Origin: a virus
Lineage: Duplodnaviria > Heunggongvirae > Uroviricota > Caudoviricetes
IMG/VR virus record: IMGVR_UViG_2718218136_000006
DNA length: 25,778 nt
Strand: one strand, 5' to 3'
The position numbers and the translations under genes were made by a program. Each line of letters starts with the position of its first letter. The stretch's first letter is position 1. Of the stretch, positions 1-24,969 are shown piece after piece. The notes under the pieces were generated by a model. The model made no database searches, had not been told where the DNA came from, and saw nothing but the letters and a program-made list of their open reading frames with translations.

Positions 1-444
1 TTATCTCGCACGCGATTTGGGGCTACCGGGCAAAACATCCGTCAACAGTTCATCAATTTCTGTCGGGATGAAGCCTGTCAGGGAGACATCAAAATCAGCA
101 TTGATTAGGTCCGACAGCTCCATCCGCAACAGATCTTCATCCCAGCCAGCATTCATCGGCAGGCGATTATCTGCCAGGCGGTACGCCTTTTTCTGCTCAT
201 CCGTCAGGCCAGACAGAACAATGACCGGAACAGAATCCATTTTGAGCATTTCAGCCGCCATAACACGACCGTGACCCGCAATAATTTCGCCCTTTTCGTC
301 AATCAGCACCGGATTAGTCCAGCCGAATTGCTTAATACTTTCTACCAGTTGTGCCACCTGCTCAGTACTGTGCGTCCTGGCGTTGTGCGCATACGGTGAC
401 AATTCTTGTAATGGGCGATAGACTATCTTTAATTTCTCGCTCAT
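1..444 (-). CDS. ParB N-terminal (ParB/Srx-like nuclease) domain protein, 147 aa; complete (stop at 1-3)
   Basis: ORF track; ATG at 442-444 with AAGG upstream; sequence pattern ...IIAGHGRV... and acidic C-terminus recalled as ParB-like nuclease fold. Sits where lambdoid head/terminase-proximal genes begin. Confidence 0.55.
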   Translation of the reverse strand: MSEKLKIVYRPLQELSPYAHNARTHSTEQVAQLVESIKQFGWTNPVLIDEKGEIIAGHGRVMAAEMLKMDSVPVIVLSGLTDEQKKAYRLADNRLPMNAGWDEDLLRMELSDLINADFDVSLTGFIPTEIDELLTDVLPGSPKSRAR

Positions 445-471
445 ACAGCCTTGCTTTATGAATAAAACGCA

Positions 472-495
472 CCCCAGCAGCCAGTGCTACTGGGG
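472..495 (-). terminator. candidate intrinsic terminator downstream of trkG
   Basis: Inverted repeat CCCCAG(472-477)/CTGGGG(490-495) with 12-nt loop; on minus strand followed within 4 nt by TTTTATT. Read by eye. Confidence 0.3.
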
Positions 496-581
496 ACGGA
501 GGTGTTGCTGGTAAAGTTAGGTATTGGATCAATGAGTGAGTCAACATAATATTAAACTCACAATTATAAATCAGCCATATA

Positions 582-2039
582 TTAGGAGCGCCAAAAAAAA
601 CCTGAAAACAATATAATAACAGGATAAATTTCAAGGCGACCAAGAATCATAGCTATGCACATTAAGCATTTTGCAATGTCATTAAGCACTCCGAATGACG
701 ATGCAGTAGCCCCAAAACCTAATCCCATATTATTAATACATGCAGCCACTGTTGCAAATGATGTAAGAAAATCATATCCCATACCATTTAACACCAGTAT
801 AAAAAACACCGTGAAGAGAGTATAAAGAAAAAAGAAACTCCATACAGACCTCATTACACGATCTGTAACTATCTTCCCTCCTACATTTACACTCAACAAC
901 GCTCTGGGATGAGAAAGCTGATTTATCTCGTGTTTGCTTTGTTTGAAAAGTATAAGAAATCGAAGTGACTTAATTCCACCACAAGTTGAACCTATACATC
1001 CCCCAAAGAAACTTGACAACAGCAAAAACACTATCGTGTGCGTGGGCCAACTTGCATAATCCTGCGTAGCTAAACCATTATCAGTGAGCATGGAGCTGGC
1101 AAGAAAAAACGAATGAATAAAACTTCCATGCAAGTCATACATACCTATATGCCAGACCTGGAAAGAGGTAACAATGATCACCCCTAAGGCTATTAACAGA
1201 AAGAAACGAAGTTCAATATCTCTGATTAAAGGTTTTATCGTTTTTCTGCTAATAACAATATACCAAAGAGTAAAGTTGAAAGCCGATAGCAGGGAAAAAG
1301 CACCAGCCACCAGCTCAACCAAATAGTTATTAAAATATCCGATACTCTCGCTATGAGTTGAGAAACCACCAAGCGAAACTGTGGAAATCCCGTGACAAAT
1401 AGCATCAAACAAAGGCATTCCTGCAAGTCTATAACAGACAATACAAGCAATACCTAATAAAGAATAAGTTATCCACAGTGTCCGTGACGTATCGGCCAGG
1501 CGGGGAGTGAGTTTGTCATCCTTAAATGGCCCCGGCATTTCTGACTGATAAAGCTTTGCACCACCAATACCCAATAATGGCAATACTGCAACCGCCAGAA
1601 CAATAACTCCTAAACCACCTATAAAATTTAACTGTGACCGATAGTACAAATATGCCCGAGGTAATGAACTAACATCATCAATTACAGTTGCTCCTGTTGT
1701 TGTTATTCCAGAAACCCCTTCAAACAGAGCATCAATGAACGTTAAATTAAGTTCTGAGTCAATCCATAAAGGGAATGCACTAATAACAGAAAACAAAATC
1801 CAAAACATTACAATTATAATAAACCCATCACGGGTACGTAATTGAATGCCAGATTTCTTAGTTGTATACCACGCTCCGCCACCAATGCAAAAAAATATAA
1901 CGAAAGTTATAAAGAAAACGAACAGGCTTTTTTCTTTATAAAACAATGCTACAACCATTGGTGGCAACATTGAAAGACTATAGAGCCAAACCAGGAACCC
2001 ACACATATGAGTAACAACTCTTACATGAGATGTATTCAT
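582..2039 (-). CDS. trkG: TrkG potassium uptake membrane protein, 485 aa (prophage moron)
   Basis: ORF track 582..2057; start re-picked at ATG 2037-2039 (MNTSHVRV...); polytopic TrkH/TrkG-type sequence recalled as Rac-encoded TrkG. Confidence 0.9.
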   Translation of the reverse strand: MNTSHVRVVTHMCGFLVWLYSLSMLPPMVVALFYKEKSLFVFFITFVIFFCIGGGAWYTTKKSGIQLRTRDGFIIIVMFWILFSVISAFPLWIDSELNLTFIDALFEGVSGITTTGATVIDDVSSLPRAYLYYRSQLNFIGGLGVIVLAVAVLPLLGIGGAKLYQSEMPGPFKDDKLTPRLADTSRTLWITYSLLGIACIVCYRLAGMPLFDAICHGISTVSLGGFSTHSESIGYFNNYLVELVAGAFSLLSAFNFTLWYIVISRKTIKPLIRDIELRFFLLIALGVIIVTSFQVWHIGMYDLHGSFIHSFFLASSMLTDNGLATQDYASWPTHTIVFLLLSSFFGGCIGSTCGGIKSLRFLILFKQSKHEINQLSHPRALLSVNVGGKIVTDRVMRSVWSFFFLYTLFTVFFILVLNGMGYDFLTSFATVAACINNMGLGFGATASSFGVLNDIAKCLMCIAMILGRLEIYPVIILFSGFFWRS

Positions 2040-2176
2040 ATCTAAATATTCTTTCAATTATAACCACCTTGCTGCAATATTATGATTATACTGTATAAAA
2101 TTTAACTCCTCTTAGATCTTACTTCACTGTTCCTTATGAAACAATCATCAAAATGAATCATATTGTAGTTAAGATT

Positions 2177-2641
2177 TTACTTTAAACACTGTTCGGTTAT
2201 GTATTGCTGAGCACCTTCAAGTTGGGCCTGCATCATTACCAGTCGTTCCCGGAGGGTGAAATAATCCCGTTCAGCGGTGTCTGCCAGTCTGGGGGAGACT
2301 GCATTATCCACGCTGGAGGTGGCGGTGGCTTCACGCACTGACTGACAGACTGCTTTGATGCGCAACCGACGACGACCAGCGGCAACATCATCACGCAGAG
2401 CATCATTTTCAGCTTTCGCATCAGCTAACTCCTTCAGGTATTTTGCATCGAGTGCAGCAACATCACGCTGGCGTATCTGCATGTCAGTAATGATTGCGGT
2501 CGCCTGGTTGAGTTTTTCCGTCACATTATCGCGTTGCGCTTTGTAGGTAATGGCATTATCACGGTAATGATTAACAGCCCATGACAGGCAGACGATGATG
2601 CAGATAACCAGAGCATAAATAATCACGGCAACTCTGCTCAC
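2177..2641 (-). CDS. Rz-type i-spanin (inner-membrane spanin subunit)
   Basis: ORF track 2177..2656; N-terminal TM segment ([18 protein letters not shown]) then coiled-coil region, lambda Rz-like; likely GTG start 2639-2641 overlapping endolysin stop (GTGA). Confidence 0.8.
2236..2421 (-). CDS. Rz1-type o-spanin lipoprotein, embedded in +1 frame inside Rz
   Basis: 61-aa ORF with lipobox LVVVGC and proline-rich PPPPP stretch, fully nested in Rz, the classic Rz/Rz1 architecture. Confidence 0.8.
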
Positions 2642-3171
2642 TGCTCTATCCCCCAACAGGCTAATGCGCTCTCCTGATCACGACGAATAACCTGACCGTA
2701 ACAGTTATTTGAACGAAGGCGGCAATCGCGCCCCCTGTCCTTAATCCACCAGCGAATCGCCTCGCAGGCACCTTTACGATCACCTGCATTCAGCCGCTTA
2801 TAAAATGTCGACGGAAAACACTTAGCGGGGCCAATGTTATAGGGACAAAATGACGCGATACCCGCTTTTTGTGGTTCGGTCAGTGTTACTTTAATATTGC
2901 GATCCACCCATGCCAGCGCCTTATCACGCTCAATGGCATTAACCTGATCGCATTTTTCCTTCGTCAGTGTCATGCCCGGAATAACAGGTTTACCATCTAC
3001 TATCGTGGCACCGCGACAGATGGTCCATATGCCGGAACCATCGCGGTATGCCGTAGTGTGGTTACCCTCTTTTTCATCCAGAAACTGGTCAAGTATCTCA
3101 GGAGCAGATGCGCCTGCTCCAATCAGCGCCAGAACGGCCGCTGACAGGCCGTATTTGATTTTTGCGTTCAT
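2638..3171 (-). CDS. SAR endolysin (phage lysozyme, signal-anchor-release type), 177 aa
   Basis: ATG 3169-3171; N-terminal Gly/Ala-rich weakly hydrophobic segment ([17 protein letters not shown]) followed by E-x8-D-x5-T lysozyme catalytic spacing ([16 protein letters not shown]). Confidence 0.85.
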
Positions 3172-3276
3172 GGATATTTATCAGGATTTATCGGTTTCTG
3201 AACCCTGGATATGTTTATCTGCCCCGGCCTGTTGAATCAGGCGGGGAAAAGGTAAATACAATCAAGAGGATTATTT

Positions 3277-3549
3277 ATGGACAATAACACCATTTCTCTA
3301 CAGGAGTTGCTCGACTGCATTTCCAGGCTTCGGGATGATGTAAATGCCCTCACTGTTGCATTTTCATATCTGGCCTTATCAATTCCCAGAGAACAAATGC
3401 AACCAACACTGGCATCGCTCCTGCTTGAATCACGCAACCCCAAATGGTCCCAGGAACAACAAAATTCTTTTAAGTGGCTGGCGACATTACTGGAAGAAAA
3501 ATATGCTGGTAAAATTACCATTTCGGTGGAGTCTTCAGAAAATCAGTAA
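3277..3549 (+). CDS. hypothetical 90-aa protein, opposite strand to the lysis cassette
   Basis: ATG at 3277 preceded by AAGAGGA at about -9; ORF overlaps the 3' end of the YdfR-like gene convergently by 35 bp. No family recognised. Confidence 0.35.
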   Translation: MDNNTISLQELLDCISRLRDDVNALTVAFSYLALSIPREQMQPTLASLLLESRNPKWSQEQQNSFKWLATLLEEKYAGKITISVESSENQ

Positions 3550-3859
3550 TTCTTCCTGGTAGCTTTCCTTTGTAGGTTATCCACACATTCTGCGCCTCTA
3601 AAATTACGGGGCGCTTTTCCGGCGACTGCTCATCCCCTTCACATAACCCGGCAGCAACATCCAGGAAGACCTGTCTGATGCTCCTTCTGGCTGCAGCCTC
3701 ATAAAACTCCAGCGCAGCACCTTCAACACGGTCCAGCGAGATGTCCAGGTCAAAAATTTCACCGTCAAAGCGTTTTTTGTCTTGTAATGCTACAGTTACC
3801 GCAACTTTATTCTCAAAATTGCGGATCCCTTTCACAATCAGTTCATAGTCTTGGGTCAT
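3515..3859 (-). CDS. YdfR-like (DUF1327-type) prophage protein, 114 aa, between holin and endolysin
   Basis: ATG 3857-3859 with strong GAGGAGAG Shine-Dalgarno; N-terminus MTQDYELIVKGIRNFENKV... recalled as the YdfR family found at the same position in other lambdoid prophages. Confidence 0.55.
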   Translation of the reverse strand: MTQDYELIVKGIRNFENKVAVTVALQDKKRFDGEIFDLDISLDRVEGAALEFYEAAARRSIRQVFLDVAAGLCEGDEQSPEKRPVILEAQNVWITYKGKLPGRITDFLKTPPKW

Positions 3860-3863
3860 TATA

Positions 3864-4079
3864 TTACTCTCCTCTCGCAGCCTTTCTTCTGTCTTCTCTG
3901 ATTTTGAAGTACAGATTTGTCAGATAAGTCAAAAAGCCCAGAACCAGACTACCCAGCACACCGATTGCAGCCCACTGTGACGGAGTTACTCTATCGAGCA
4001 ACTGTAAAAACCAGTAGCCAGCACTGCCTGCGGAGGTGCCATAGGCGACACCCGTTGTTAACTTATCCATGGATTTCAT
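3864..4079 (-). CDS. pinholin (phage 21 S-type holin), 71 aa, dual-start MKSM
   Basis: ORF track 3864..4172 trimmed to ATG 4077-4079 (second Met at 4068-4070) behind GAGGTG; sequence ...[17 protein letters not shown]...[19 protein letters not shown] matches recalled S21 pinholin. Confidence 0.85.
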
Positions 4080-4467
4080 AACCCCCACCTCGCAGATGCG
4101 GGCGCTGTGTAATGGAAACAAAAAATGGCCACCAGCGGCCCGTAAAAAACACCCCGTCAAAAGCACCGGCATCCGCAGATGCCCTTTGCGTGGCGTTATT
4201 TGATGCGCGCCAGATGTGGCGCAAAGAAATGAAATAAGCCTTATCGAAAATTAAGGTTAATTTGATGATTTAAACCACTTCTGAAGCTTAGTAGTATGAA
4301 CATGTCCCCAGAAGGGGCCAATACTTATTATTCTTCATGGACTTTGTCCCGCGGTCTTAATCCGACGACCGCGCTACTTTTCACCCTCTCGCAAATTGCT
4401 ATCTAAAGGACGTTGTCCCACGAGTATTCCTGGATGCTCGTGTCTTTTTTTGTCCTGAGAAAGGAAT

Positions 4468-4490
4468 AAAAAAACCGCCAGATATGGCGG
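4468..4490 (-). terminator. candidate intrinsic terminator (minus strand) between tRNAs and holin
   Basis: Stem CCGCCA(4475-4480)/TGGCGG(4485-4490), 4-nt loop, followed on minus strand by a run of 7 T (4468-4474). Confidence 0.35.
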
Positions 4491-4856
4491 TTGGTCAATG
4501 CAAGGGATGAATTTTTTAATTGTTATTAAACCGAGGCGTCGGGTGCCTCCCGAAGTATTCCGTGCTGTATGGATACTGTGGTTTCCCGCTAAACCGACTC
4601 TTTAAACCACCCTCGCACTGAGGAGCACCTCTGTGGTGCGATTTACAACACCAGAATGATGCATCACCGACCCTGCCAGGAAATACAAAATCTCCACCGA
4701 TAATGCACCATTCTGCTGCCGTAAAAAAATCAGCACTGAGGCTACACCCGGCCTCAAATCATAGCCAGAGAACAGAATGCTTTTTCAAAACAACCTGCTC
4801 CCACGTAATAAAAAAATACGCCAGTGCCGTAATACAATAAGGCTTGTTTCAAATGC

Positions 4857-4931
<75 letters not shown>

Positions 4932-4934
4932 ATA

Positions 4935-5010
<76 letters not shown>

Positions 5011-5123
5011 ATTGGTTCTTCAGGGGAGCGATATCACCGATCAAAGAAGAGTTCCCCCTCAGAACCGTTTTCGATGATACGATTTAATATTCCAATCGCA
5101 ACAACAGTTTGCGTCAAGTTATG

Positions 5124-5204
5124 TAAATTTATTTATATGTTTTTATTTTATGTGAATAATTCACTTTCACTTAAAATATATACAACAACATATAAATAAA
5201 TTTA
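5124..5204. repeat. 17-bp perfect inverted repeat (TAAATTTATTTATATGT at 5124-5140; reverse complement at 5188-5204), 47-bp spacer
   Basis: Directly read; AT-rich intergenic DNA between the Q-proximal terminator and tRNA-Thr. Confidence 0.6.
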
Positions 5205-5249
5205 TTTTGAAGGCGATGATTAAATGTCGTTTCTGATATCACACCACAG

Positions 5250-5278
5250 AAACAACAAAACCCGCTCGATGGCGGGTT
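5250..5278 (-). terminator. intrinsic terminator downstream of the Q-like gene (tR'-like position)
   Basis: Stem AACCCGC(5259-5265)/GCGGGTT(5272-5278), loop TCGATG; on minus strand followed by TTGTTGTTTC. Confidence 0.5.
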
Positions 5279-5363
5279 CTATTAAAGTTTAATTGCGCTT
5301 GATTCGCCTCGCGATACAGCTTTGCGAAGCGTAGCAAAATTAAAGCAGTTTATGCGTAAAAAA

Positions 5364-5906
5364 TCAAGCCGTTTTTTGAGCGAATGATTCTCGCATGGGA
5401 ATGTATAGCGCATACTCAGCAACGGCCAACCAATTAGCAATTCGCTTTTCGCATGTGCTAAAACACCACTCTGGGTGTGCATCATTTAGCAATTCAGCCA
5501 TTTTGCGTTTGGTCATCCCCCGCCCCTCATACCGTTGCCGAAGGACGCTAATCAATCCTGGATGCTCTGCCAGCACCTCACTTATGACCCGATCAATACA
5601 TAACGCCTCTGCATCAGTACAATGTGCCAGCCAGCTCTTTTGCTTACCGTTAATCATATCCCGCAAAAAAGCCTCAAGTTCAGACTTGTTCAGACCTGCT
5701 TTTTTCATCCTCCGGAGCGCCTCGTTAATTGCCGTTTTTGTCAGCTTTTTAGAGGCCAACAACTGGTTGAACATATTCCCCGTCTTACCGCCGCCAATAT
5801 ACGACCAGCGCCCCCACATGCGCAGTTTTCCCTGAATCCAGACACTTTCCAGCGTGGTGAGACGAAGGTGTTCCCCGCTTTTGCCTATATTTGTTGGGTA
5901 AATCAT
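5364..5906 (-). CDS. putative late-gene antiterminator Q-like protein, about 180 aa
   Basis: ORF track 5364..6026 trimmed to ATG 5904-5906, which overlaps the upstream gene stop (ATGA); W-G-x-W motif (MWGRW) near N-terminus as in Q-family proteins; position immediately upstream of terminator, tRNAs and S-R-Rz. Confidence 0.5.
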   Translation of the reverse strand: MIYPTNIGKSGEHLRLTTLESVWIQGKLRMWGRWSYIGGGKTGNMFNQLLASKKLTKTAINEALRRMKKAGLNKSELEAFLRDMINGKQKSWLAHCTDAEALCIDRVISEVLAEHPGLISVLRQRYEGRGMTKRKMAELLNDAHPEWCFSTCEKRIANWLAVAEYALYIPMRESFAQKTA

Positions 5907-6193
5907 AAATAACCTTCCTTTCTCCAGATTTCTTGCGTGCGAAAAACACCTTCTGCATGCATCAGGCGTAATTCTTCTTTGGTGTAATCGCTTGTTTTTA
6001 CCCGCCAGTCGATTAGATCGTGGCATGAGCTACAGGCTATCGCCGCCTGCATATCGTGTGGTTTTGTCGCTGTTCCGCACGTCCCCGCCAGCCTGTAATG
6101 CGCCAGCACAGAGGTTTCGGGATTGTGATTGCAGTAGCCAGGGATTCTGATCTGGCACATCTGGCCTTTAGCCGCTTTACGTAAATTCACCAT
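5903..6193 (-). CDS. YbcO-like (DUF1364) nin-region protein, 96 aa
   Basis: Pattern LRKAAKG..CQIRIPGYCNHNPETSVLAH recalled from DLP12 YbcO; start ATG 6191-6193 overlaps upstream stop (TAATG). Confidence 0.6.
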   Translation of the reverse strand: MVNLRKAAKGQMCQIRIPGYCNHNPETSVLAHYRLAGTCGTATKPHDMQAAIACSSCHDLIDWRVKTSDYTKEELRLMHAEGVFRTQEIWRKEGYL

Positions 6194-6792
6194 TACGCAA
6201 ACTCCAGTAGTTGTGCGGCCACATTTTCAATTTCCTCCTGAGAGGAGAATTTACGGAACAGAATCCAGTTCCACAGCACATTCAGTACAGATTTATAAAC
6301 CTGCTGAAACTCGACTTCGTCCATATTCGCAAACGCGATGGATTTCGCCCGACGCCCACGGCTACCATCAGGATAAAAATGCTCTGTGTAAAATCCGGCC
6401 TGAATGGTTACCCACTCGCGGAAAGCCTCAAACGACTTTAGCAATGCCGTATCCCGGGTTCTGCGTGTCGCAACGGTATTCAGATATTGCTCTGCGGCAC
6501 CACTCAGGGCTGGAGTATGTTCCCGACCTACTGATTCGCACAGGTAATCAACGAAGCCTGATACCAGTTCTCGTTCTCGAGGCGTGATCGCCCCACCGAT
6601 CGGAGTCCAGTAATCGAATCCCAGTTGCAGGAGTTTGAAAAAACGCTTGTGGAATGCATAGTTACGCACACGCTTAAAGTCTGCGTGTATCCACTCGCCT
6701 ATTTTGATTTGATGCAGAAAATCGCAACTCTCCGGCGTCGCCGGGAGAAGTAAACCAGAAGAAGTTTGTTTGACCAGTTGTATATGCGCCAT
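6193..6792 (-). CDS. hypothetical nin-region protein, 199 aa
   Basis: ATG 6790-6792 with GGAG upstream; long ORF, co-oriented and coupled to the downstream gene. Family not recognised with confidence. Confidence 0.55.
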   Translation of the reverse strand: MAHIQLVKQTSSGLLLPATPESCDFLHQIKIGEWIHADFKRVRNYAFHKRFFKLLQLGFDYWTPIGGAITPRERELVSGFVDYLCESVGREHTPALSGAAEQYLNTVATRRTRDTALLKSFEAFREWVTIQAGFYTEHFYPDGSRGRRAKSIAFANMDEVEFQQVYKSVLNVLWNWILFRKFSSQEEIENVAAQLLEFA

Positions 6793-6863
6793 CGTAGTTC
6801 TCCGCTGGCGCAGTAGAATGGGTGTTCAGTCCGTTGTGCAGTATACCAGAATTAATACCAATA

Positions 6864-7076
6864 CTAACAGGATGCTCTGACTCGCAATTCATCCAGCAGT
6901 TTATCATTTCCCATAATGTCACTTAACCTCATCGGTAAAAAAATTGCCTTTCGCCCATTACGATACATCATTGATTTTTGGTTTTCAGGGAAGTAATCCA
7001 TTTCGACTATAACTGACAGGTCATCACGACGTATGACTGCGTATTTGCTACTAAATAGTTTCTTTATTTTTTCCAC
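6864..7076 (-). CDS. hypothetical small protein (about 70 aa from GTG 7074-7076; ORF track extends to 7115)
   Basis: GGAGG 4 nt upstream of an internal GTG; no ATG start available; left edge of the AT-rich island. Confidence 0.3.
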   Translation of the reverse strand: MEKIKKLFSSKYAVIRRDDLSVIVEMDYFPENQKSMMYRNGRKAIFLPMRLSDIMGNDKLLDELRVRASC

Positions 7077-7963
7077 GATGCCTCCAAGTTTATAAGTACA
7101 AGAGGTTATATCCACATAGAGACAAAAATATTAATCTTAAAAATATTTATTTCACGCCGTATATTTGTTTGTTTTATGCGCAGGCACAATGACTTTTATT
7201 TATTGTTATGCATATAATCAAATAAGTGATTGTTTTTTGCTCTTCAGATTCAGCAGGCAAAATGCATAAGGGCTGAAAGTTCTCGCATATAATACCTAAT
7301 TTACTATCACTATATTCTAAGCACTTACCAGGTGATTAGGAACGGAACCCAGTACCGTGCGAATTTTAATTATGTGCTGGGACCAAACGGTCTGAAATGT
7401 CTTCATTGGTGACGATGATTACTCTTACTTTTTGATTTTAATATTCCGGCAATAATTTTAATAAAAATCTGTTTTAACTCTGCATTTTGCTGATTCTCCG
7501 AAGAAACTATCCATCTCTACGAGGAGATCAAATGTCGTTTCAAATCAGTATGATGAGTATAAAAATCATGCCATAAATAGAAAACTAATTCGTCTGTATA
7601 GCAGTAATATTTCTGAAAATTAGTAGGATACTGTGGTAAAGAAATTCATTTCCAAGTAATTGGTAAACGCATTTGATTTGATTTTTTGTATGGGCTGTAC
7701 TGGCTAAATAACATCCGATACTTGCCAGCACTAGCGATTGCTATTGATGAGAACAATAGTGGCATCCGGCAAAGCATTTTGTAGGGGGGTATCAAGCGGT
7801 GCTAACGCATTGCGGTAAAAATTCTGTCACACTTGGCGAGCAGGCATAGAGATGATCTCATTGAATTGGTTGCAATCACAAAACACTATGCCTGCCTTTT
7901 CTATTCGCCCATTGCTGGGGAGTCCACAGCACTACTGCAGCTTTTTAGTACGATGAACAGCTA

Positions 7964-8087
7964 TTAAGTAATTTCAGAGGTATCTATCACTTTCTCAGGA
8001 GTTGTAGATAACAATTCTTTCATACGCTGATCTTCGGGAGCACGAGAAGACAGGTGTTCTAAAAACTCACGCCATTGACGCTTTGCA
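7964..8087 (-). pseudogene. orphaned 3' end (37 codons plus stop) of the GHKL ATPase gene, cut off by IS10
   Basis: Reading across the 9-bp duplication, the ATPase frame continues without a stop for 37 codons (QWREFLEHLSSRAPEDQRMKELLSTTPEKVIDTSEIT) to TAA at 7964-7966. Confidence 0.7.
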
Positions 8088-9416
8088 CTGAGAGATCCCC
8101 TCATAATTTCCCCAAAGCGTAACCATGTGTGAATAAATTTTGAGCTAGTAGGGTTGCAGCCACGAGTAAGTCTTCCCTTGTTATTGTGTAGCCAGAATGC
8201 CGCAAAACTTCCATGCCTAAGCGAACTGTTGAGAGTACGTTTCGATTTCTGACTGTGTTAGCCTGGAAGTGCTTGTCCCAACCTTGTTTCTGAGCATGAA
8301 CGCCCGCAAGCCAACATGTTAGTTGAAGCATCAGGGCGATTAGCAGCATGATATCAAAACGCTCTGAGCTGCTCGTTCGGCTATGGCGTAGGCCTAGTCC
8401 GTAGGCAGGACTTTTCAAGTCTCGGAAGGTTTCTTCAATCTGCATTCGCTTCGAATAGATATTAACAAGTTGTTTGGGTGTTCGAATTTCAACAGGTAAG
8501 TTAGTTGCTAGAACCCATGGCTCCTTTGCCGACGCTGAGTAGATTTTAGGTGACGGGTGGTGACAATGAGTCCGTGTCGAGCGCTGATTTTTTCGGCCTT
8601 TAGAGCGAGATTTATACAATAGAATTTGGCATGAGATTGGATTGCTTTTAGTCAGCCTCTTATAGCCTAAAGTCTTTGAGTGACTAGATGACATATCATG
8701 TAAGTTGCTGATAGGTTTCCAGTTTTCCGCTCCTAGGTCTGCATATTGTACTTTTCCTCTTACTCGACTTAACCAGTACCAACCCAGCTTCTCAACGGAT
8801 TTATACCATGGCACTTTAAAGCCAGCATCACTGACAATGAGCGGTGTGGTGTTACTCGGTAGAATGCTCGCAAGGTCGGCTAGAAATTGGTCATGAGCTT
8901 TCTTTGAACATTGCTCTGAAAGCGGGAACGCTTTCTCATAAAGAGTAACAGAACGACCGTGTAGTGCGACTGAAGCTCGCAATACCATAAGTCGTTTTTG
9001 CTCACGAATATCAGACCAGTCAACAAGTACAATGGGCATCGTATTGCCCGAACAGATAAAGCTAGCATGCCAACGGTATACAGCGAGTCGCTCTTTGTGG
9101 AGGTGACGATTACCTAACAATCGGTCGATTCGTTTGATGTTATGTTTTGTTCTCGCTTTGGTTGGCAGGTTACGGCCAAGTTCGGTAAGAGTGAGAGTTT
9201 TACAGTCAAGTAATGCGTGGCAAGCCAACGTTAAGCTGTTGAGTCGTTTTAAGTGTAATTCGGGGCAGAATTGGTAAAGAGAGTCGTGTAAAATATCGAG
9301 TTCGCACATCTTGTTGTCTGATTATTGATTTTTCGCGAAACCATTTGATCATATGACAAGATGTGTATCTACCTTAACTTAATGATTTTGATAAAAATCA
9401 TTAGGGGATTCATCAG
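8088..9416 (-). mobile_element. IS10 copy 1 (1329 bp), flanked by 9-bp direct duplication CGCTTTGCA (8079-8087 and 9417-9425)
   Basis: Ends CTGAGAGATCCCCTCATAATTTCCCC (inside end) and ...TCATTAGGGGATTCATCAG (outside end) recalled as IS10 termini; exact 9-bp flanking repeat read from sequence. Confidence 0.95.
8101..9309 (-). CDS. IS10 transposase, 402 aa
   Basis: ORF track; protein MCELDILHDSLYQFCPELHLKRLNSL... recalled as the IS10/Tn10 transposase. Confidence 0.95.
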   Translation of the reverse strand: MCELDILHDSLYQFCPELHLKRLNSLTLACHALLDCKTLTLTELGRNLPTKARTKHNIKRIDRLLGNRHLHKERLAVYRWHASFICSGNTMPIVLVDWSDIREQKRLMVLRASVALHGRSVTLYEKAFPLSEQCSKKAHDQFLADLASILPSNTTPLIVSDAGFKVPWYKSVEKLGWYWLSRVRGKVQYADLGAENWKPISNLHDMSSSHSKTLGYKRLTKSNPISCQILLYKSRSKGRKNQRSTRTHCHHPSPKIYSASAKEPWVLATNLPVEIRTPKQLVNIYSKRMQIEETFRDLKSPAYGLGLRHSRTSSSERFDIMLLIALMLQLTCWLAGVHAQKQGWDKHFQANTVRNRNVLSTVRLGMEVLRHSGYTITREDLLVAATLLAQNLFTHGYALGKL

Positions 9417-22512: not shown

Positions 22513-22707
22513 ATGAGATATGACAATGTTAAACCATGTCCATTTTGTGGTTGTCCATCAGTAACGGTGAAAGTCATTTCAGGATATTACCGAGCGAAGT
22601 GTAACGGATGCGAATCCCGAACCGGTTATGGTGGAAGTGAAAGAGAAGCACTCGAAAGATGGAATAAACGAACCACTGGAAATAATAACGGAGGTGTTCA
22701 TGTATAA
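22513..22707 (+). CDS. ralR: RalR (Lar) restriction-alleviation protein, 64 aa
   Basis: ORF track 22474..22707 trimmed to ATG 22513 (MRYDNVKPCPFCGC...); Cys-rich zinc-ribbon-like pattern. Confidence 0.8.
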   Translation: MRYDNVKPCPFCGCPSVTVKVISGYYRAKCNGCESRTGYGGSEREALERWNKRTTGNNNGGVHV

Positions 22708-22888
22708 AATTACCGCTACTATTGAAAAGGAAGGTGGCACTCCTACTAACTGGACAAGATATTCAAAATCTAAACTAACGAAATCAGAATGCGAAAAAAT
22801 GCTCTCAGGTAAAAAAGAAGCAGGCGTTTCCAGAGAGCAGAAAGTAAAACTGATAAATTTTAATTGCGAGAAACTTCAGTCCTCGTGA
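22700..22888 (+). CDS. ydaC: YdaC, 62 aa
   Basis: ATG 22700 behind GGAGG, overlapping ralR end by 8 nt; ORF track 22628..22888. Confidence 0.65.
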   Translation: MYKITATIEKEGGTPTNWTRYSKSKLTKSECEKMLSGKKEAGVSREQKVKLINFNCEKLQSS

Positions 22889-23640: not shown

Positions 23641-24969
23641 CTGAGAGATCCCCTCATAATTTCCCCAAAGCGTAACCATGTGTGAATAAATTTTGAGCTA
23701 GTAGGGTTGCAGCCACGAGTAAGTCTTCCCTTGTTATTGTGTAGCCAGAATGCCGCAAAACTTCCATGCCTAAGCGAACTGTTGAGAGTACGTTTCGATT
23801 TCTGACTGTGTTAGCCTGGAAGTGCTTGTCCCAACCTTGTTTCTGAGCATGAACGCCCGCAAGCCAACATGTTAGTTGAAGCATCAGGGCGATTAGCAGC
23901 ATGATATCAAAACGCTCTGAGCTGCTCGTTCGGCTATGGCGTAGGCCTAGTCCGTAGGCAGGACTTTTCAAGTCTCGGAAGGTTTCTTCAATCTGCATTC
24001 GCTTCGAATAGATATTAACAAGTTGTTTGGGTGTTCGAATTTCAACAGGTAAGTTAGTTGCTAGAACCCATGGCTCCTTTGCCGACGCTGAGTAGATTTT
24101 AGGTGACGGGTGGTGACAATGAGTCCGTGTCGAGCGCTGATTTTTTCGGCCTTTAGAGCGAGATTTATACAATAGAATTTGGCATGAGATTGGATTGCTT
24201 TTAGTCAGCCTCTTATAGCCTAAAGTCTTTGAGTGACTAGATGACATATCATGTAAGTTGCTGATAGGTTTCCAGTTTTCCGCTCCTAGGTCTGCATATT
24301 GTACTTTTCCTCTTACTCGACTTAACCAGTACCAACCCAGCTTCTCAACGGATTTATACCATGGCACTTTAAAGCCAGCATCACTGACAATGAGCGGTGT
24401 GGTGTTACTCGGTAGAATGCTCGCAAGGTCGGCTAGAAATTGGTCATGAGCTTTCTTTGAACATTGCTCTGAAAGCGGGAACGCTTTCTCATAAAGAGTA
24501 ACAGAACGACCGTGTAGTGCGACTGAAGCTCGCAATACCATAAGTCGTTTTTGCTCACGAATATCAGACCAGTCAACAAGTACAATGGGCATCGTATTGC
24601 CCGAACAGATAAAGCTAGCATGCCAACGGTATACAGCGAGTCGCTCTTTGTGGAGGTGACGATTACCTAACAATCGGTCGATTCGTTTGATGTTATGTTT
24701 TGTTCTCGCTTTGGTTGGCAGGTTACGGCCAAGTTCGGTAAGAGTGAGAGTTTTACAGTCAAGTAATGCGTGGCAAGCCAACGTTAAGCTGTTGAGTCGT
24801 TTTAAGTGTAATTCGGGGCAGAATTGGTAAAGAGAGTCGTGTAAAATATCGAGTTCGCACATCTTGTTGTCTGATTATTGATTTTTCGCGAAACCATTTG
24901 ATCATATGACAAGATGTGTATCTACCTTAACTTAATGATTTTGATAAAAATCATTAGGGGATTCATCAG
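23641..24969 (-). mobile_element. IS10 copy 2 (1329 bp), flanked by 9-bp direct duplication CGCTTTACC (23632-23640 and 24970-24978)
   Basis: Same termini as copy 1; 9-bp flanking repeat read from sequence; same orientation as copy 1. Confidence 0.95.
23654..24862 (-). CDS. IS10 transposase, 402 aa
   Basis: ORF track; protein identical to the copy-1 transposase. Confidence 0.95.
   Translation of the reverse strand: MCELDILHDSLYQFCPELHLKRLNSLTLACHALLDCKTLTLTELGRNLPTKARTKHNIKRIDRLLGNRHLHKERLAVYRWHASFICSGNTMPIVLVDWSDIREQKRLMVLRASVALHGRSVTLYEKAFPLSEQCSKKAHDQFLADLASILPSNTTPLIVSDAGFKVPWYKSVEKLGWYWLSRVRGKVQYADLGAENWKPISNLHDMSSSHSKTLGYKRLTKSNPISCQILLYKSRSKGRKNQRSTRTHCHHPSPKIYSASAKEPWVLATNLPVEIRTPKQLVNIYSKRMQIEETFRDLKSPAYGLGLRHSRTSSSERFDIMLLIALMLQLTCWLAGVHAQKQGWDKHFQANTVRNRNVLSTVRLGMEVLRHSGYTITREDLLVAATLLAQNLFTHGYALGKL

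Follow-up and report, generated by a model that had tools for sequence, protein, structure and literature searches.

The bor gene of phage lambda lies on the opposite strand and adjoins Rz, and its product, Bor/Iss, is a lipoprotein. In phage 21, lysis is served by a dual-start holin/antiholin arrangement. The concept of the moron was reportedly put forward by Juhala et al. 2000 for lambdoid phages. A moron is an autonomous extra gene in a phage genome, a definition summarised in PMC3714127. We investigated a small gene of comparable placement, an ORF for 90 amino acids on the opposite strand of a lysis cassette, in a stretch of 25,778 nucleotides from an IMG/VR virus record (IMGVR_UViG_2718218136_000006), the whole of which is called the window. 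The initial annotation had described a plus-strand ORF with a ribosome-binding site, located between the endolysin start and ydfR and overlapping the latter by 35 bp, and its coordinates and the overlap were confirmed, with AAGAGG as the ribosome-binding sequence (Table 1).

The lysis cassette and its opposite-strand ORF

Inspection of the neighbouring genes revealed a cassette of holin, YdfR, signal-anchored lysozyme and Rz/Rz1, which is of the phage 21 type and resides in a Rac-type cryptic prophage. The holin starts with MKSMDK, which fits the dual-start pattern of phage 21, and the lysozyme is read, from its sequence, as the signal-anchor-release type. The 61-aa ORF embedded in Rz has a lipoprotein-like N-terminus that fits an Rz1 outer-membrane spanin, and it is left unannotated by PGAP in the identical sequence of E. 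coli EC12. The DUF1327 gene is a regular resident between holin and lysozyme genes. Its product in the window, YdfR, is a mosaic, of which about the N-terminal two thirds is common to the YdfR of K-12 and the C-terminal third differs; the protein is 114 aa long in the window, 103 aa in K-12 Qin, and 116 aa in phage PhiR40_1.

Table 1. Positions of the cassette genes and of sequence elements at the 90-aa ORF, numbered in the window
Feature	Position	Strand	Remarks
Rz	2177-2641	-	lysis cassette
Rz1-like lipoprotein ORF, 61 aa	2236-2421	-	embedded out of frame in Rz
Phage lysozyme (R)	2638-3171	-	PF00959, E 9e-24; hydrophobic N-terminal segment
Imperfect palindrome/hairpin	3221-3248		CCCCGGCCTG-TTGAAT-CAGGCGGGG; upstream of 90-aa ORF
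Candidate -10 hexamer TACAAT	3257-3262	+	by-eye inspection only; conserved in three diverged E. coli variants
Shine-Dalgarno AAGAGG	3264-3269	+	7 nt 5' of the ATG of the 90-aa ORF; from sequence
90-aa ORF	3277-3549	+	ATG start, TAA stop; PGAP CDS; PHROG 2411 match
Convergent 3' overlap, 90-aa ORF/ydfR	3515-3549	both	35 nt
YdfR-family gene (DUF1327), 114-aa variant	3515-3859	-	DUF1327, E 9.5e-44
Class II (phage 21 type) holin, 71 aa	3864-4079	-	PF04971, E 4e-34; begins MKSMDK

Over bases 1-8087 the window agrees with E. coli EC12 and with a dozen further genomes, apart from an indel of one base. The region of the 90-aa ORF is 100% identical to EC12, where the lysis cassette adjoins trkG. Collinearity with EC12 ends past position 8087 because of two IS10 insertions in the window. 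These two copies (8088-9416 and 23641-24969) are in direct orientation, 99.85% identical over 1345 nt, and both absent from EC12; each contains an RNA-OUT match (9302-9371 and 24855-24924, plus strand) and shows an apparent 9-bp target duplication. According to the EC12 annotation, the elements interrupt a gene for an ATP-binding protein, which lies upstream of the gene for a DNA cytosine methyltransferase, and the prophage integrase gene intR. At about 4313-4318, in a non-coding stretch upstream of the holin gene, a G-run reads GGGG in the window and GGGGG in EC12. Genes for tRNA-Gly and tRNA-Thr, assigned from EC12, are located at 4860-4931 and 4938-5010 (minus strand), between the antiterminator-region genes and the holin gene. 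A full-length Rfam match (220 bits) at 22706-22884 (minus strand) is to RalA, antitoxin sRNA of the RalR/RalA toxin-antitoxin pair of Rac.

The 90-aa ORF is already catalogued in databases as a hypothetical protein. It takes up most of the 343-nt gap between ydfR and R. PGAP placed a CDS at exactly matching coordinates in an identical genome, RefSeq holds the product as WP_000369847.1 ("hypothetical protein"), and a few UniProt records name it Ybl58. The protein matched PHROG 2411 at full length (all 90 residues aligned with the 90 positions of the profile, E 4.9e-57). Exactly the same protein is present on at least 720 contigs, and about 21% of complete E. coli genomes (roughly 1129 out of 5426) have the ORF module, among them E. 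coli B, whose copy is 93% identical in nucleotides. The isolated phage Chlobot (PP925838) keeps the ORF as well. A literature search on the 90-aa protein, Ybl58 and ydfR/DUF1327 returned nothing relevant.

We scrutinized the flanking sequences for expression signals. The GAGG core of the Shine-Dalgarno sequence is kept in variants of the ORF with 93% and 86% nucleotide identity. No sigma-70 promoter upstream of the ORF passed a consensus scan. For the TACAAT hexamer picked out by eye, the sole TTG-type -35 element sits 19 nt upstream, and the leader implied would be very short. A scan 3' of position 3549 found no plus-strand terminator, and the ORF runs into ydfR. Folding of 76 nt of plus strand at the upstream palindrome gave z = -3.1 in the window and -1.5 in the 86% variant, and no T-run follows the palindrome on either strand. 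The hairpin was rejected as a conserved RNA structure, being unsupported in the 86% variant. No Rfam element was found in positions 3100-3700, nor a LexA box near the ORF. The GC content of the ORF was 0.435-0.46 versus 0.43-0.525 for the flanks, slightly below its neighbours with no clear break. A separate terminator-like hairpin with a T-run lies on the plus strand at 3134-3162, within the 5' part of the lysozyme coding sequence and about 115 nt upstream of the ORF; it could stop antisense read-through into the ORF, or be a coincidence.

Coding evidence for the plus-strand frame

The length of the ORF is by itself not beyond chance, and it is conservation that carries the case. Non-genic ORFs of 87-146 aa were found in the same 4.5 kb, including a mirror ORF of 94 aa at 3237-3521 on the minus strand. 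We compared copies of 97, 93, 92 and 86% nucleotide identity from E. coli chromosomes and phages, along with a plasmid copy of 74% identity. In every diverged copy that was compared, including the one at 74%, the plus frame remained open. The dN/dS ratio was estimated by the Nei-Gojobori method for the part of the ORF outside the ydfR overlap, and amounted to 0.18-0.28 among diverged pairs for the plus frame. The two shifted plus frames gave about 0.5-4.8 and contained many stops. The mirror minus frame gave an apparent ratio of 0.14-0.33; since this frame shares third-codon positions with the plus frame, dN/dS is unable to pick the coding strand. The strand is decided by stop codons. These interrupt the minus ORF of the 86% variants, of the plasmid copy and of further haplotypes, all with a plus frame that stays open, and they point to the plus frame as the coding one.

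Wider sampling was examined at two levels of divergence. Among 30 unique haplotypes, representing 89 sequences from IMG/VR and E. coli, 27 were intact, two were one codon short, and one had an internal stop. Variable sites numbered 17, 11 and 34 at codon positions 1, 2 and 3, respectively. Relatives of 81-106 aa and 26-43% identity were recovered by searching 1.8 billion representative proteins with a profile, and by a second database search; they have in common the core ELL..I...L..AFSYLAF...E...Q..F..LA. Homologues at this level of identity in other genera have kept both the length and the core motif. The initial annotation had let the case for a gene hang on conservation of the reading frame, and the frame is conserved in the haplotypes, in the dN/dS values and in the distant homologues. 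These comparisons indicate that the 90-aa ORF is a real protein-coding gene under purifying selection.

E. coli fairly often carries shortened copies, of 46-61 aa, which suggests that the gene is dispensable. Some disrupted loci were recorded individually. In E. coli PEC178 (positions 1501-1700 of the retrieved locus), a deletion has left about 17 codons from the start of the ORF, joined to what remains of ydfR, and in strain razor3 a copy of ISEc52 lies between the lysozyme gene and the ORF. In the homologue on plasmid NZ_CP132064.1 (about 5015-5040 of the retrieved locus), the poly-A run after ATGATG is shorter than the intact 89-aa relative requires; the start is out of frame and PGAP used an ATT start. 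Either an error in sequencing the homopolymer or a true frameshift could account for this difference.

The 90-aa protein has a GRAVY value of -0.36 and no hydrophobic stretch. Members of its family are hydrophilic, with pI values of 4.4-6.1, and have neither a signal peptide nor a membrane segment. An AlphaFold2 model built on a 55-sequence alignment (mean pLDDT 82, pTM 0.56) shows amphipathic helices at residues 8-34, 38-52 and 59-77, followed by a tail at 80-90 that is disordered; with a shallower alignment the model had four helices and a pLDDT of 71. The 35-nt overlap with ydfR corresponds to the codons for this C-terminal tail, where confidence is low (pLDDT <50). Overall, the protein is predicted to be soluble and mildly acidic, with three helices and a disordered tail. 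Searches with Pfam, NCBIfam and PDB sequence profiles gave zero matches for the protein or its relatives, and fold libraries gave no informative match for the predicted structure. Four family members had no match among the PADLOC defence profiles at E up to 1.

Presence, absence and contexts of the family

Related cassettes differ in whether the gene is present. In K-12 Qin, ydfR (103 aa; 4055-4366 of the retrieved locus) overlaps the start of rrrQ and there is no 90-aa ORF; homology between Qin and the window is lost from about 3180 to 3655. In phage PhiR40_1, YdfR has the same long C-terminus as in the window and is followed by a gap of 63 nt and then R, and the segment corresponding to about 3240-3513 of the window is missing. 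As judged by these alignments, the 90-aa gene is a presence/absence polymorphism between two otherwise adjacent genes. PhiR40_1 has kept some of the upstream palindrome, a hint that the difference may have arisen by deletion.

Where the gene is present in viral genomes, its surroundings are uniform among close relatives. The order R(-), ORF(+), YdfR(-), S(-) was fixed in the best 80 viral loci of IMG/VR (80/80). A prophage of Citrobacter freundii has a homologue of 59% identity, which lies on the opposite strand upstream of a class II holin gene, with a similar lysozyme nearby. A conserved convergent partner was considered and rejected, as the partner in Citrobacter is a 63-aa ORF unrelated to YdfR. 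A relative of 39% identity is also on the opposite strand, upstream of two genes of unknown function, a DUF1441 gene and the terminase gene. The copy on the E. coli plasmid NZ_CP132064.1 lies beside an autotransporter gene and IS remnants, and a further copy is found amid IS elements and a group II intron.

Homologues were also found on chromosomes. In Serratia marcescens, in a Serratia-like contig, and in contigs with a Chimaeribacter-annotated protein, the gene order is pyrC-dinI-X-bssS-solA, where X is the homologue. The dinI gene is an SOS gene and bssS is a biofilm gene. In these genomes X comes after the dinI terminator, and the Serratia copy is apparently monocistronic. A LexA box in Serratia was examined as a possible element of the homologue and discarded; it belongs to dinI, and the terminator separates dinI from the homologue. 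The only conserved motif upstream of the Serratia and Chimaeribacter copies was the dinI terminator. The adjacency to dinI and bssS may be a coincidence. Sodalis ligni and unassigned metagenome contigs have stand-alone chromosomal homologues in a non-phage setting. PHROG 2411 was also matched by the relatives from Citrobacter and Serratia and by the phage relative of 39% identity. Taken over these contexts, the PHROG 2411 family appears to be independent of the lysis genes and of any conserved partner.

Proposed role and comparison with known systems

We consider, with a probability of roughly 0.7, that the 90-aa ORF is a genuine accessory gene that is moron-like in its placement, is expressed from its own signals, encodes a product acting by protein binding, and has a position that implies no role in lysis. 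The gene would be read separately from the lysis genes, most likely in the lysogen. Signals of its own are postulated because the gene faces against late transcription, an orientation in which the late promoter cannot express it. Its product would most likely act by binding another protein, since it is small and has no enzyme-like or DNA-binding match. The site occupied may be a junction formed by recombination in the late region, where additional genes are tolerated, as with lambda bor near Rz, and the place of the gene inside the lysis cassette is probably incidental.

A more far-reaching proposal is that PHROG 2411 consists of small cytoplasmic regulators native to the chromosomes of Yersiniaceae, which lambdoid prophages capture repeatedly, always against the late operon, and which modulate a stress or SOS pathway of the host and thereby affect prophage induction or the fitness of the lysogen. 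We regard this as unlikely. The family resembles the products of its Serratia neighbours, DinI and BssS, in being small (80-95 aa), acidic and cytoplasmic, and the Serratia copy appears to be transcribed as a single gene. No similarity to DinI or BssS in sequence or fold was found for the family, and there is no LexA box upstream.

The initial annotation had also raised the possibility that the 90-aa protein regulates the timing of lysis, here by a cassette of pinholin and signal-anchored endolysin. The constant R/ORF/YdfR/S arrangement in the best 80 IMG/VR loci is in keeping with this idea, as is the Citrobacter homologue, which has a class II holin and a lysozyme of similar kind as neighbours; a broader link to late functions could be read from the Citrobacter copy (holin) and the 39% relative (terminase), both of which are in late regions. 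The gene is nevertheless oriented against the late operon and is therefore not part of its transcript, and its product has no membrane or periplasmic targeting features. Homologues without phage neighbours exist on the chromosomes of Serratia, Chimaeribacter and Sodalis, besides the plasmid and IS-associated copies, and functional-looking cassettes without the gene exist. From the MKSMDK start of the holin and its dual-start pattern, as in phage 21, a timing device is probably already there. A role in lysis timing is thus disfavoured by strand, by the lack of a membrane segment, by non-phage homologues and by the dual-start-like holin, and we judge it unlikely. The 90-aa gene resembles the lysis regulators and antiholins (phage 21 S71, T4 RI, P1 LydB) in lying inside a lysis cassette; unlike them, it is an opposite-strand gene, lacks a membrane segment in its product and has homologues outside phages, and the protein is not a member of that group.

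Another reading places the function in the RNA. A plus-strand transcript running into ydfR and the holin gene would damp leaky activity of the late genes in the lysogen, with a secondary part for the protein. The two genes do overlap convergently by 35 nt, and no plus-strand terminator was detected downstream, so that ydfR and S would lie in the path of an antisense transcript. This reading too seems unlikely to us: selection acts at the amino-acid level, distant homologues keep the protein where no convergent partner exists, and the promoter scan was negative. Finally, it is scarcely credible that the ORF is no gene, being either a chance frame in an intergenic spacer or the shadow of a real, co-directional 94-aa minus gene. 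In its favour, the neighbourhood has many chance ORFs of about this length, and the minus ORF has an equally low apparent dN/dS through shared wobble positions and an ATG located 7 nt ahead of the stop of ydfR. Against it, the minus ORF acquires internal stops in variants with an open plus frame and has no match in PHROG and NCBIfam searches, and the plus protein has homologues of 26-43% identity in other genera.

An ORF carried by about one fifth of complete E. coli genomes can be taken, on the coding evidence above, as a genuine selected gene and not an antisense artefact. The PHROG 2411 family extends beyond phages, and would represent a small family that prophages have taken up repeatedly. 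Should the protein indeed modulate a stress pathway of the host from within the prophage, it would be one more small effector expressed in lysogeny. The practical value is modest, and the current view of lysis cassettes and morons is unchallenged.

We favour the moron-like accessory gene, and the comparison with described morons is as follows. The initial suggestion of a moron holds in so far as the related cassettes of K-12 Qin and PhiR40_1 lack the gene; as to the autonomous features of morons, scanning detected no promoter/terminator pair for the 90-aa gene, the TACAAT hexamer being a candidate by eye, and its GC content showed no clear deviation. Unlike Bor/Iss, the product is predicted to be a soluble, cytoplasmic, helical protein and not a lipoprotein, and has no known lysogenic-conversion phenotype. 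It is a member of PHROG 2411, a family without an assigned function. As with lambdoid morons such as lambda bor, the gene breaks up a stretch that runs without interruption in related phages. Like lambda bor, it is directed against late transcription in or near the lysis region, and, as morons do, the PHROG 2411 family moves among phage, plasmid and chromosome contexts.
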